From the NCBI RefSeq assembly GCF_003334305.1, contig NZ_QOWS01000019.1: 64,000 nt of DNA, one strand, 5' to 3'. Positions 8,591 to 17,625 of this stretch are shown in pieces. This stretch comes from Escherichia coli (GTDB taxonomy: Bacteria > Pseudomonadota > Gammaproteobacteria > Enterobacterales > Enterobacteriaceae). Within the stretch, counting starts at the first letter, position 1; every line of letters starts with the position of its first letter. The notes below the pieces were generated by a model. It was given only the letters and a program-made list of their open reading frames with translations. It was not told the DNA's origin and ran no database searches. Position numbers and translations under genes: made by a program.

Positions 8591-8899
8591 TTACACATCA
8601 TTCCATGGTGGCAGCCGGTTAACTTTCCTGCGCCACCAGTGGAAAGAGGCCATGAGCAGTCCGAACAAAAAACCACTCGTGATACTTATAATAATGGCCT
8701 CACCTGCTACCATTCCTGACGGCCCCCAGTACATAAACCACATTGCACATCCCCAGGAAATACCCCATAAGCCCCCCATCAGCAGCGTAACCTGCCAGAA
8801 CGGCATAAAGGGCAATGGCGGAAGCCGGATACCCAGCCGCCAGAGAATACGCAGCAGAGGAGGAGCATAATTACTCCGCCACATCTTTTTGCTGTCCAT
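8591..8899 (-). CDS. Small membrane protein of unknown function (longer paralogue of 17254-17472)
   Basis: 102-aa ORF with two hydrophobic segments; N- and C-termini nearly identical to the 73-aa paralogue but with about 30 extra internal residues. Confidence 0.45.
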   Translation of the reverse strand: MDSKKMWRSNYAPPLLRILWRLGIRLPPLPFMPFWQVTLLMGGLWGISWGCAMWFMYWGPSGMVAGEAIIISITSGFLFGLLMASFHWWRRKVNRLPPWNDV

Positions 8900-8997
8900 C
8901 AGGGCAATTGCCCGGGCTTTTTTTGCTCAAAAGTCACAGGAGCACCTCCGTTCCATGATGTAAACGTGACACAACTTATTGTTATTGATTATTATTA

Positions 8998-9440
8998 TCA
9001 TACCGTGATTATGTTGTCATGCACCTGTACACTGATAAAAGAAAGGGAGAACAGGAGGCTGGCTGAACAACCAATCCGTTCGTCCAGTTCAATGGCGGCT
9101 ATCAGGTTCTGCTCCGCAATGTACTCACGAATGCGCTTCCTGTCCTGGCTGGCCAGCATGGTCCAGAATATCTCCATCATTTACCGGCGACTTTCCTGCT
9201 CATTTCATCCCGCCATGCAGCAGCGGAAGATTCGACCATGTCATGGGGAAGCACATCGCCGCGCTCGAGTTGCTGACGTCCTGCCTCAACCTGGTCACGG
9301 AACCAGGTATTATGCTGCCGTTCCACGGTCTGGCGCATAAAATCCCGGATTAACTGAGAGCCATTACGGTCCATGCTTTTTGCAGGGCCATAAAAGCATC
9401 CTTCAGTTCAGCGTCAATTCTTAAACTCATATTAACCTGT
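8998..9440 (-). pseudogene. Remnant toxin-antitoxin module: truncated ParE/RelE-like toxin and frameshifted RHH antitoxin
   Basis: Toxin frame matches the first ~38 residues of the intact 93-aa toxin at 20957-21238 then diverges at the deletion join; the antitoxin frame lacks one base (gcagggccat versus gcagcggccat in the intact copy). Confidence 0.6.
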
Positions 9441-9509
9441 GCCATTTATCACCCCGTCATTACCACGTATATACACAGTATATAACGATTCAGATATCGT
9501 CACTAGGAT

Positions 9510-9600
9510 ATGCCGCGCCAGCGGCATGGAAGGCGGCACTCCGCTGTTTCATATGATACCGCCGAAGCCCGATGTAAGCCGCTACAGTCGTCCGAAAGTC
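9510..9600 (+). repeat. Conserved hairpin module, copy 1 of 3 (candidate single-strand initiation site)
   Basis: atgccgcgccagcggcatggaaggc ... catatga ... gccgaagccc; the same module recurs at 21569 and 57311. Confidence 0.5.
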
Positions 9601-9735
9601 ACCAGCCTCCTCCCCCCTGCCGTCATCCGTGCATCAGCTATGCACTGAGTATGCCTGCCCTTCCCTAGAGAATCCTGCTAGGCTTGCCACACTGATATAT
9701 CTTGACTTTATGTAAACGATATGACACTTTAACAT

Positions 9736-9754
9736 GATAATGATTACCATTCTC
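9736..9754. promoter_or_regulatory. Fur-box-like sequence upstream of cvaA
   Basis: gataatgattaccattctc, about 16 of 19 matches to the Fur consensus; it lies ~300 bp upstream of cvaA, so the link to that promoter is uncertain. Confidence 0.3.
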
Positions 9755-10088
9755 TTTTAATATACAGAGAAACTAGGAAATAGATGAATGAGTTATGTTA
9801 CTTTAATATTCTCTGACAATAACCTAAATCAGTTAGATTATTGTCATTTAATAAATAATGACATTCTTTCATCATAAATAAAAAGACTATTGTTTATAAT
9901 ATTGTTCTCAGCATTATATGATTATTTATCCTGATAACTCTCCTATGCTGTATGTTTATATGATTTTCCTTGAAACATATAATGCAAATTTTCGATTTAT
10001 TTTCCATCATTAATCCAGATAAACAACAAACTAATAGTATGCAAGGAGACATTATTTGTTTCGCCAGGATGCTTTAGAAAACAGAAAA

Positions 10089-15053: not shown

Positions 15054-15323
15054 ATGGATACCATTCTTTTAACCGGGCTGTTTGCTGCATTTTTCACAAC
15101 GTTTGCGTTCGCTCCCCAGAGCATAAAAACTATCAGGACACGCAATACCGAAGGTATCTCCGTTGTTATGTATATCATGTTCCTGACAGGTGTAATCTCA
15201 TGGATAGCGTATGGCATTATGCGATCTGATTTTGCCGTACTGATCGCCAATATTGTCACACTGTTTCTGGCTGCACCAGTGCTTGTAATAACACTTATCA
15301 ACCGCAGGAAAAAACACGTATGA
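15054..15323 (+). CDS. PQ-loop / SemiSWEET-like small membrane protein
   Basis: 89-aa ORF with three predicted membrane helices and a PQ motif (FAPQSIK) in helix 1. Confidence 0.45.
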   Translation: MDTILLTGLFAAFFTTFAFAPQSIKTIRTRNTEGISVVMYIMFLTGVISWIAYGIMRSDFAVLIANIVTLFLAAPVLVITLINRRKKHV

Positions 15324-15586
15324 ATATTGCAATCATCGGCGCGGGTCCTGCCGGCATCATTTCTGCCCGTAATGCGATTAAAGCAGGTCACTCCGTGGTT
15401 CTGTTTGAGAAGAATACCCGAATTGGGGGGATCTGGAACCCCTGGAGTGGTGGCGCTTACCGTAATGCCTGTATGCAGAACTCTCGTTATACATTTCATT
15501 ATACTGGCTTTCCCCCTGGCGATATCGATGAACGAAGTTGGATGCAAATGTCAGATCGTGTGCGCCTGTTAGGGCGCGGCTGGTAA
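15320..15586 (+). pseudogene. N-terminal fragment of an FAD/NAD(P)-binding monooxygenase
   Basis: 88-aa frame starting with a dinucleotide-binding fold (IAIIGAGPAGI ... FEK) and ending prematurely; full-length members are 400-500 aa. Confidence 0.4.
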
Positions 15587-15641
15587 GAGAGCCTTATAGG
15601 CGCATTTGAAAAACCTCCGGCTATGCCGGAGGATATTTATT

Positions 15642-16124
15642 TCATAATATTCTGAGCAGTCTTGCCGGGTTTCCTGCATAAATGCCTTTGTTCTCAATCG
15701 GTTTTACCACAACTGAACCCGCACCAATAACAGCTCCGCTGCATATATACGGAGACAGAATAATGGCTCCACTGCCAACAGTAACCGAATCCCCCAGGGT
15801 AATGCTGATCCAGTTATCCGGTGACGGATCTGGTGCTCCTGAACGAAACAGATCGTTGGCGAACGTCACGTTATGACCAATGAAGCAGTTCTCCCCCAGT
15901 GTTACGTTCTCACAAATAAACGTGTGCGACTGTATCCGGCTTCCACTACCAATGACACAGCCTTTCTGTATCTCAACGAAGGGGCCGACAAACACGTTGT
16001 CCCTGAGTTCACATTCATAAATGTTGACCGGTTTGACAATACGGACATTGGTCCCATAAATCACATCCCGGACAGCACATTCCATAAATTTCATACTCAC
16101 ACGTCCTTTAAATACAGATGACAC
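15642..16124 (-). CDS. Hexapeptide-repeat (left-handed beta-helix) acetyltransferase
   Basis: 160-aa ORF with repeated [LIV]G-x4 hexapeptide pattern (IGENCFIGHNVTF, VGSGAIIL, IGAGSVVV); the true start may be the internal ATG at 16094, which has an AAGGA site upstream. Confidence 0.65.
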   Translation of the reverse strand: MSSVFKGRVSMKFMECAVRDVIYGTNVRIVKPVNIYECELRDNVFVGPFVEIQKGCVIGSGSRIQSHTFICENVTLGENCFIGHNVTFANDLFRSGAPDPSPDNWISITLGDSVTVGSGAIILSPYICSGAVIGAGSVVVKPIENKGIYAGNPARLLRIL

Positions 16125-16386
16125 TTGCCGGAATTATACAGCCCAGATTCACTTGCTATGTTTCAGAATAGCTTATAAGCCGCACTTTTACCGATACTCA
16201 GCAACAAATCAGGTCTGGATCCACTTCAGCCGGAAACCGGATCTGCGCGGCGGGGAACGGGCATACAATATGATAATTAAGCAACTTATATAAAACCATA
16301 TCTGATATTATTAATAATAAATAACACACAAATCATGCGGGATATGATTTTTATTTGTCAGAACATTATCAGATGGAGCGTGCAGG

Positions 16387-16647
16387 ATGGATGAAGAAAG
16401 GGTGTTTTCACTCAGCTATGAACAACTGACCCGGTTTGCGGAAAAACGCATCCGGGAATGCAATCTGGACAGCCAGGGCGTAACTTATCTCTGCGAGTCA
16501 GCCAAAGCCGGAGCTGTGCTGATCTTCTGGCATGAACTGGCCATAAATGGCTATGCCTCAATGAATGCCATAAAGAGACAGGAGATCATTGACGCCGACC
16601 ATCAGCGCCTCAGAAAGCTCATCTGGCCGGAGGATGACTGGAAATGA
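16387..16647 (+). CDS. Hypothetical protein, first gene of a two-gene unit
   Basis: 86-aa ORF whose stop overlaps the start of the next gene (ATGA); no recognisable motif. Confidence 0.45.
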   Translation: MDEERVFSLSYEQLTRFAEKRIRECNLDSQGVTYLCESAKAGAVLIFWHELAINGYASMNAIKRQEIIDADHQRLRKLIWPEDDWK

Positions 16648-17234
16648 CTCAGAGCCGCCGACCGTCGCCACTGCAGCGAAGAATGCTGATTGTGCTGGCT
16701 GCCCTTGATGAAAAACGGCCAGGACCCGTGCTGACGCGGGACATAGAACGGGTGCTGGAGCGAAGCGGGGAAGCCCCAGTCTACGGGCCAAACCTGCGCG
16801 CCTCCTGCCGTCGTCTGGAGGATGCCGGCTGGCTGCGTACCCTGCGCGCTCCGAACCTGCAGCTGGCAGTGGAGCTGACGGACGCCGGCCGGGCCGTGGC
16901 ACAGCCTCTGCTGCTGGCAGAACAGGACCGCCTCCGGGCAGAACAGCGTGCGGCAGAAGTCGTCGTACTGCCGCTGGTCCCGGCAGCAGGTCTGCCCGCA
17001 GATGGCACTTCTGCCACTGATCTGGCGGTGCAGCTGAACGGCATAACGTATCAGGCCTGCCGTGGGGATTTTGTGGTGCATCTCGACGGCAGCACCTGTC
17101 TGCAGTTATGGAATAAAGAAGGCAGGGTGGTACGCCGGGAGGGCGATCCGCTGGAAGTGGCGCAGTGGCTGCAGGCCTGTCACGATGCAGGAATGGAGGT
17201 TCGCGTACAGATAAATGAAAGTGCCGCTCCGTAA
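16644..17234 (+). CDS. Hypothetical protein with a possible winged-helix N-terminal domain
   Basis: 196-aa ORF; intact here, while the partial copy at 8245-8590 is decayed. Confidence 0.5.
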   Translation: MTQSRRPSPLQRRMLIVLAALDEKRPGPVLTRDIERVLERSGEAPVYGPNLRASCRRLEDAGWLRTLRAPNLQLAVELTDAGRAVAQPLLLAEQDRLRAEQRAAEVVVLPLVPAAGLPADGTSATDLAVQLNGITYQACRGDFVVHLDGSTCLQLWNKEGRVVRREGDPLEVAQWLQACHDAGMEVRVQINESAAP

Positions 17235-17625
17235 GAACACGCCTGTGCACGGTTTACACATCATCCCATGGTGGCAGCCGGTTAACTTTCCTGCGCCCCC
17301 AGTAGATAAACCACATTGCACATCCCCAGGAAATGCCCCATAAGCCCCCCGTCAGCACCGTGACCTGCCAGAACGGCATAAAGGGTAATGGCGGAAGCCG
17401 GATACCCAGCCGCCAGAGAATACACAGAAGAGGAGGGGCATAATTGCTCCGCCACATCTTTTTGCTGTCCATCAGGGCAATGGCCCGGGCTTTTTTCTGC
17501 TCAAAGGTCACAGGAGCACCTCCGTTCCATGATGTAAACGTGACACAGCTTATTGTTATTGATTATTATTATCATGCTGTGGTTATGTTGTCATGCATCA
17601 GTACACTGACAAAAGTGCAAAAGAA
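16890..17625. repeat. Direct repeat copy B, part 1 (intact counterpart of 8245-9050)
   Basis: By-eye alignment with copy A. Confidence 0.75.
17254..17472 (-). CDS. Small membrane protein of unknown function (shorter paralogue of 8591-8899)
   Basis: Start taken at the ATG matching the paralogue (MDSKKMWRSNY); lacks the ~30-residue internal segment. Confidence 0.45.
   Translation of the reverse strand: MDSKKMWRSNYAPPLLCILWRLGIRLPPLPFMPFWQVTVLTGGLWGISWGCAMWFIYWGRRKVNRLPPWDDV

Follow-up and report, generated by a model that had tools for sequence, protein, structure and literature searches.

The DNA analysed here, called the window, is a stretch of 64,000 nucleotides (nt) of Escherichia coli contig NZ_QOWS01000019.1 and was recognized as part of a pS88-like ColV-Ia plasmid of the IncFIB/FII type, which is a well-known type of E. 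coli virulence plasmid. It carries two copies of ybaA, a small gene whose product belongs to the DUF6404 family. A preliminary description of this DNA had reported a pair of paralogous genes for small membrane proteins, and this was borne out: both open reading frames (ORFs) were found on the minus strand and both matched DUF6404.

8591-8899, minus strand: ybaA/DUF6404 copy A, 102 amino acids (aa) from the ATG at 8899; both transmembrane (TM) helices present, family positions 1-13 gone.
17254-17511, minus strand: ybaA/DUF6404 copy B, 85 aa from the GTG at 17511; N-terminus intact, residues 73-102 of the 115-aa form deleted.

The similarity of the two copies lies far above chance, with E-values of 1e-139 and 1e-142 for blastn comparison of the flanks. 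Copy B corresponds exactly to RefSeq entry WP_000142431.1, and its pS88 equivalent was annotated as 'ybaA', pS88106 (PMC3438092). Copy A is represented in RefSeq by WP_000269327.1, a 97-aa protein for which the start was taken at the next (second) methionine after the ATG at 8899; both entries bear the name 'DUF6404 family protein'. Of the two lengths given earlier, 102 aa was correct for copy A, but 73 aa was not correct for copy B, as positions 17254-17472 alone encode 72 aa plus a stop codon and the ORF is open further upstream to the GTG at 17511. The termini were also rightly described as nearly identical, with 5 of 72 residues differing outside the gap, but an N-terminal extension of 13 codons, intact in B and frameshifted in A, had been missed.

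Nucleotide alignment of the two genes, the check proposed in the preliminary description, showed only one gap, exactly 90 nt long; identity is 93-95% to either side of it, and the reading frame is unchanged. The difference is thus a true in-frame indel and no frameshift artefact, although the stretch listed earlier with 29 residues has 30. In the protein it lies between ...YWG and RRKVN....

8633-8722, minus strand: 90-nt segment, present in copy A and absent from copy B; 30 codons PSGMVAGEAIIISITSGFLFGLLMASFHWW, encoding the periplasmic turn and nearly all of TM2.
17294-17297, minus strand: deletion junction of copy B; 3 nt of microhomology, the exact breakpoint being ambiguous within GGC.

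Two imperfect direct repeats of 9 nt flank the segment in copy A, ACTGGGGGC (8722-8730) and ACTGGTGGC (8632-8640), at a spacing of exactly 90 nt, and one hybrid repeat, ACTGGGGGC, is left in copy B at 17295-17303. The closest full-length relative of copy B, WP_000142452.1 (encoded on pCUVET18-565.1), also carries both repeats at this spacing. Its DNA differs from that of copy B by 2 substitutions and the 90-nt loss, and from that of copy A at 15 of 309 positions. The great majority of close plasmid homologues have 115 aa, and among the 701 cluster representatives found by an exhaustive HMMER search the distant ones (30-45% identity) have 114-125 aa. Distant DUF6404 homologues match residues 1-114 from end to end, TM2 included, and in the alignments conserved family columns are seen for the first 13 residues (MTFEQKKARAIAL) as well as for the 30-residue segment. 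Because 115 aa with two TM helices is the family norm, from E. coli plasmids to relatives at about 30% identity, and because the closest full-length relative has the segment, the indel is a deletion in B and not an insertion in A. The repeats bear the mark of replication slippage or a microhomology-mediated deletion, which probably removed the 90 bp from copy B, and the frame was kept because the direct repeats happen to sit 90 nt apart.

Copy A carries a different lesion, located at its 5' end.

8899-8937, minus strand: leftover of copy A's original 5' end, the remnant; GTG start at 8937, 12 out-of-frame codons, then TGA.

One nucleotide was lost from an A7 run (8918-8924), which reads CAAAAAAA in copy A as against CAGAAAAAA in copy B and the full-length relatives. 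This deletion separates the conserved first 13 codons from the rest of the gene, and the same 13 codons are intact in B; the GTG start and a GGAGG motif are conserved in both copies. The last base of the TGA which closes the remnant is also the first base of the ATG at 8899. Since the frame from the GTG at 8937 now stops after 12 codons, copy A would at best yield a product that lacks these 13 conserved residues, perhaps through re-initiation after termination. The lesions of A and B are complementary and separate. It had been stated earlier that neither copy is simply the intact ancestor of the other, and this agrees with the alignments, B lacking 30 internal codons, A its first 13, and the genes having diverged by about 5%. 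The pair is most readily understood as ordinary lineage-specific gene decay, in which copy B lost 90 bp and copy A independently lost 1 bp, a reading to which we give a probability of roughly 0.85. As A and B are direct repeats, it was also observed that a crossover in the approximately 190 nt between the lesions would restore an intact 115-aa gene and simultaneously remove the 8.6-kb interval with cvaABC-cvi.

The comparison with other plasmids, also suggested beforehand, identified the segment-bearing form as the commoner one. The 90-nt segment was present in 1857 PLSDB plasmids, while a 50-mer spanning the deletion junction matched over its full length in 116, at least 113 of them conjugative. 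The junction-matching PLSDB records numbered 119 in all, including 102 from E. coli and 16 from Salmonella, and copy-A-type DNA was found at 99% identity or more in about 340 plasmids. A 52-mer centred on the A-run, used to count the frameshift allele, gave no match, probably because it was masked by the BLAST low-complexity filter, and this allele was checked directly in the fetched loci instead. In a sample consisting of the window and four database records (DSM 30083, pS88, STEC1589 and MS20655), the same pair of lesions was found in all five ColV-Ia plasmids, and two non-ColV plasmids each had a single intact ybaA copy. The deletion probably arose once, and recently, within the ColV-Ia plasmid lineage.

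Many other truncated or frameshifted versions nearly identical to ybaA are present in the databases, and their number among close relatives suggests weak selection on this gene on E. coli plasmids. The region of copy B also gave 2201 matches in E. coli chromosomes. Each covered part of the query only, and the one examined, in E. coli O104:H4 (L004, 6039-6116), proved to be a pseudogene, a 78-nt stub of the DUF6404 3' end cut by an IS66 element; these matches are therefore uninformative on which form is commoner. The stub is situated in an island near fecIRA.

At the protein level, DUF6404 was the only Pfam match for ybaA. Copy A matched this family (PF19942) with E = 4.9e-31 and 107.9 bits over model positions 14-114 of 115, copy B aligned column for column with DUF6404 members outside the gap, and an intact relative matched PHROG 31022 at 1e-36. 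NCBIfam gave no match for copy A, copy B or the neighbouring 196-aa protein, and PADLOC gave no match. The full-length family architecture, i.e. a helix at positions 1-13, the motif MWRSNYAPPLL and two TM helices in about 115 aa, is found in neither copy. The near-invariant MWRSNYAPPLL motif and TM1 are retained in both, and A and B are damaged rather than intact members of DUF6404.

An AlphaFold2 model of the 115-aa form, built on a 74-sequence alignment, reached a predicted local distance difference test (pLDDT) score of 95.4 and a predicted template modelling (pTM) score of 0.81, with helices at residues 3-16, 21-24, 27-34, 47-71 and 78-106. YbaA is accordingly predicted to be an inner-membrane protein in which three short helices make up the cytoplasmic N-terminal part and the two helices after them form a membrane hairpin. 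All 13 lysine and arginine residues lie at positions 6-38 and 103-108, and the hairpin implied by this placement is N-in/C-in. Hydrophobicity is higher in TM2 (KD19 value of 1.9) than in TM1 (1.2). The helix left in copy B is only marginally hydrophobic and rich in tryptophan and glycine, with basic residues on both sides. As the weaker helix is the one that remains, flanked by positive charges on both sides, the product of copy B probably cannot take the native N-in/C-in topology and is probably non-functional. A fold search of the Protein Data Bank (PDB) with the high-confidence model gave a best match of E = 2.7, and AFDB50 gave nothing but uncharacterised family members, of which some carried the label DUF2628. 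No paper in the library searched mentioned DUF6404, and literature searches turned up no functional study of ybaA with colicin Ib or IncI1.

Each copy has a promoter-like site upstream, whose -10 element is overlapped by one and the same Fur-box-like 19-mer, matching at 16 of 19 positions; all these sites are predictions. A Fur-box-like site was defined by at most 3 mismatches to GATAATGATAATCATTATC.

8981-9020, minus strand: promoter-like site of copy A, ATGACA-18-AATAAT from 9020 to 8991; Fur-box-like 19-mer at 8981-8999.
17555-17594, minus strand: promoter-like site of copy B, from 17594 to 17565; Fur-box-like 19-mer at 17555-17573.
8081-8099, 8981-8999, 9736-9754, 14163-14181, 17555-17573 and 19988-20006: Fur-box-like sites, identified by sequence match.

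The immunity gene has a promoter-like site of its own (17540-17569, plus strand), which that of copy B overlaps in divergent orientation. Six Fur-box-like sites in the window compare with 0.02 expected by chance. Those outside ybaA are found at or close to known iron-regulated genes: the DAHP-synthase gene, cvaA, the cvi/cvaC side and cia. The DAHP-synthase gene is ORF123 of pS88, the most iron-induced gene of that plasmid. By qRT-PCR on pS88, the ybaA transcript was 5-9 times more abundant in iron-poor media, a change that was not significant (PMC3438092, Table 1), and cia was also up in these media (PMC3438092). Since neither copy has lost its promoter, Shine-Dalgarno site or Fur-box-like operator, transcription of both remnants probably continues under iron scarcity.

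Gene decay was weighed against other explanations of the pair. In one of them the short form would be ancestral, and copy A would have gained the 30-residue stretch by insertion or internal duplication. The segment is hydrophobic, as TM1 is, and beyond this only the a priori symmetry of any indel speaks for such a gain. The segment fits, however, the conserved columns of every full-length homologue down to about 30% identity as well as the Pfam model positions, it is present in the nearest relative of B, two substitutions away, and plasmids that have it are about 16 times commoner. The family alignment had already ruled this explanation out, and its probability is negligible. Even less credit can be given to a sequencing or assembly artefact, or to a frameshift mis-read as an in-frame indel. 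No point in its favour was found, and it is ruled out by the exact 90-nt gap with its well-conserved sides, by the identical junction in 116 independent plasmid records and by about 106 records in E. coli complete genomes which match the copy B region at 99% identity or more.

It is also unlikely, if conceivable, that short copy B is a selected functional variant, acting as a single-pass or peripheral modulator or as a dominant-negative partner of A, or that A and B complement each other. The complementary lesions always occur together in the five plasmids examined, promoter, Shine-Dalgarno site, start codon and Fur-box-like site are kept in both copies, the deletion is in frame with no further disabling mutation in B, and the allele persists in 116 plasmids. 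Persistence and co-occurrence are, however, expected from clonal inheritance in one young plasmid lineage, and a copy only 2 substitutions away from an intact allele has had little time for more decay. A length that is a multiple of three is expected given repeats 90 nt apart, and the many other broken versions on E. coli plasmids point to weak selection. The marginally hydrophobic remaining helix, with positive charges on both sides, speaks against a functional product as well. Several points nevertheless weigh against decay as the explanation. More than 100 plasmids have stably inherited the deletion allele with no further visible decay, and RefSeq sets no pseudogene flag on it, so that the one-helix form may conceivably have kept its function or have an altered one. 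The co-occurrence of the lesions was seen in 5 plasmids only, and a single origin of the deletion was deduced from identical junctions rather than from a phylogeny. The ybaA fold changes in pS88 had p-values of 0.10-0.20 (PMC3438092), and the primers used may not tell A from B.

The two ybaA copies are part of two modules of the colicin Ia (ColIa) type.

8218-9556: module A, decayed; ydfA-like remnant, ybaA copy A, a join at 9041/9052 to the 5' part of yacB, then a frameshifted yacA.
16857-21615: module B, complete ColIa module; 196-aa ydfA-like gene, ybaA copy B, imm, cia, yacC exonuclease gene, yacB and yacA.
17640-17975, plus strand: imm, colicin Ia immunity gene, 111 aa, WP_001080729.1.
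17997-19877, minus strand: cia, in module B.

Module A adjoins cvaA and module B adjoins RepFII. The longer ybaA copy had been placed in an otherwise decayed repeat, and this proved accurate: in module A the ydfA-like gene is frameshifted, yacB is truncated, and imm, cia, yacC and the 3' end of yacB are lost, so that the 3.5-kb stretch 17616-21109 of module B has no counterpart there. The breakpoint of module A (9041-9052 compared with 17615-21110) lies just upstream of the ybaA promoter-like site, and the sequence there continues directly into the middle of yacB. The modules are 91-93% identical around ybaA and 97% identical in yacAB, the flanks of the gene having diverged by 7-9%. Within ybaA the synonymous divergence (dS) is about 0.13 and the ratio of non-synonymous to synonymous divergence (dN/dS) about 0.2. 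This ratio and the divergence of about 5% in the gene argue against a recent in-plasmid duplication, and by these sequence measures A and B are old, separately evolved alleles once under purifying selection. What the pair reflects is not a duplication inside this plasmid with decay afterwards but two ColIa-type modules that diverged separately.

The decay of module A differs between sister plasmids, since the yacA copy beside cvaA (9177-9445) is frameshifted in the window and in E. coli DSM 30083, while its pS88 equivalent is annotated as intact (WP_000079941.1). Beyond module A, positions 9614-9665 match 20128-20178 inside the yacC exonuclease gene of module B (52 nt, 88% identity), and may be a further leftover of what module A has lost. 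Long ORFs run antisense to the 196-aa ydfA-like gene at 16558-17250 (minus strand), 16602-17081 and 16781-17044. One of them has 230 aa and ends a few bases from ybaA. RefSeq shows the plus-strand gene only at this place, and a G+C-rich gene may have given rise to the antisense ORFs as a by-product. The convergent genes cia and imm are separated by 21 nt, and in this gap a perfect 9-11 bp hairpin with T-runs on both strands (17958-17982) has the appearance of a bidirectional terminator.

In plasmids of enterobacteria, ybaA accompanies the colicin Ia/Ib module, in the order yacABC-cia-imm-ybaA-ydfA, and it is divergent from the ColIa/Ib immunity gene on every such plasmid examined. The intact 115-aa allele WP_000142452.1 stands beside this immunity gene on IncF, IncK/Z and related plasmids. 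Its locus is like that of copy B in the promoter region and in the order of imm, divergent ybaA and ydfA-like gene; unlike A and B, it lacks neither the 13 N-terminal codons nor the 90-nt segment. The neighbourhoods of five distant homologues, from a Xenorhabdus prophage, two Serratia and two enterobacterial contigs, showed no shared conserved partner, and their contexts comprised a prophage moron region, a position between TonB-dependent receptors and one beside fimbrial genes. Guilt by association consequently yields no function.

Comparison with known systems was made for colicin lysis, holin-like and immunity proteins. In group A colicin operons the colicin gene is followed by an opposite-strand imm and then by the lysis gene, and ybaA resembles the lysis proteins in position only, as a small membrane-protein gene on the colicin strand beyond imm. 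The lysis proteins are lipoproteins of about 30 aa, whereas YbaA is a 115-aa two-helix hairpin without signal peptide or lipobox (L-x-x-C); its N-terminus is charged and helical (MTFEQKKARAIAL...) and its only cysteine lies inside TM1. The gene is on the cia strand, yet a terminator-like hairpin stands after cia and ybaA has a promoter-like site of its own. With these features, and with distant homologues that have no colicin neighbours, the idea that ybaA is the missing ColIa lysis gene finds no support. Class II holins and phage 'moron' membrane proteins are similar to YbaA in size, in having two TM helices, in the predicted N-in/C-in topology and in a basic C-terminal tail, and DUF6404 is, as they are, found in prophages (PHROG 31022; the Xenorhabdus prophage context). 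No sequence or fold match of ybaA to holins was found, and neither in the window nor in seven other contexts examined does ybaA have a lysozyme, endolysin or spanin gene as its neighbour. In Serratia ficaria a separate pair of Phage_holin_8 and lysozyme genes is located 2 kb from the DUF6404 homologue. The ColIa immunity gene is likewise distinct from ybaA, being a separate ORF with a different annotation.

Our best guess is that ybaA encodes an iron-repressed, stand-alone small accessory protein of the inner membrane which is inherited with the ColIa/Ib module. Colicins Ia and Ib have no known lysis gene, and a possible role of YbaA in colicin release was considered for this reason. It is quite improbable, though, that YbaA is a Fur-controlled ColIa/Ib accessory which might aid colicin release or tolerance in iron starvation, with ColV-Ia plasmids keeping two complementary, partly disabled copies as full activity is costly or as the fragments cooperate.

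The importance of the pair beyond annotation is small, as ybaA is an annotated accessory gene in a well-sequenced plasmid lineage. WP_000142431.1 and WP_000269327.1 would be better labelled as internally deleted and N-terminally truncated derivatives, respectively, of the 115-aa ybaA product. The pair offers a tidy example of what appears to be a microhomology-mediated in-frame deletion, and it marks the plasmid as holding one complete ColIa module and the decayed remnant of a second. Possible control by Fur, together with the constant linkage to the ColIa/Ib immunity gene, provides the only leads to the function of the widespread DUF6404 family.

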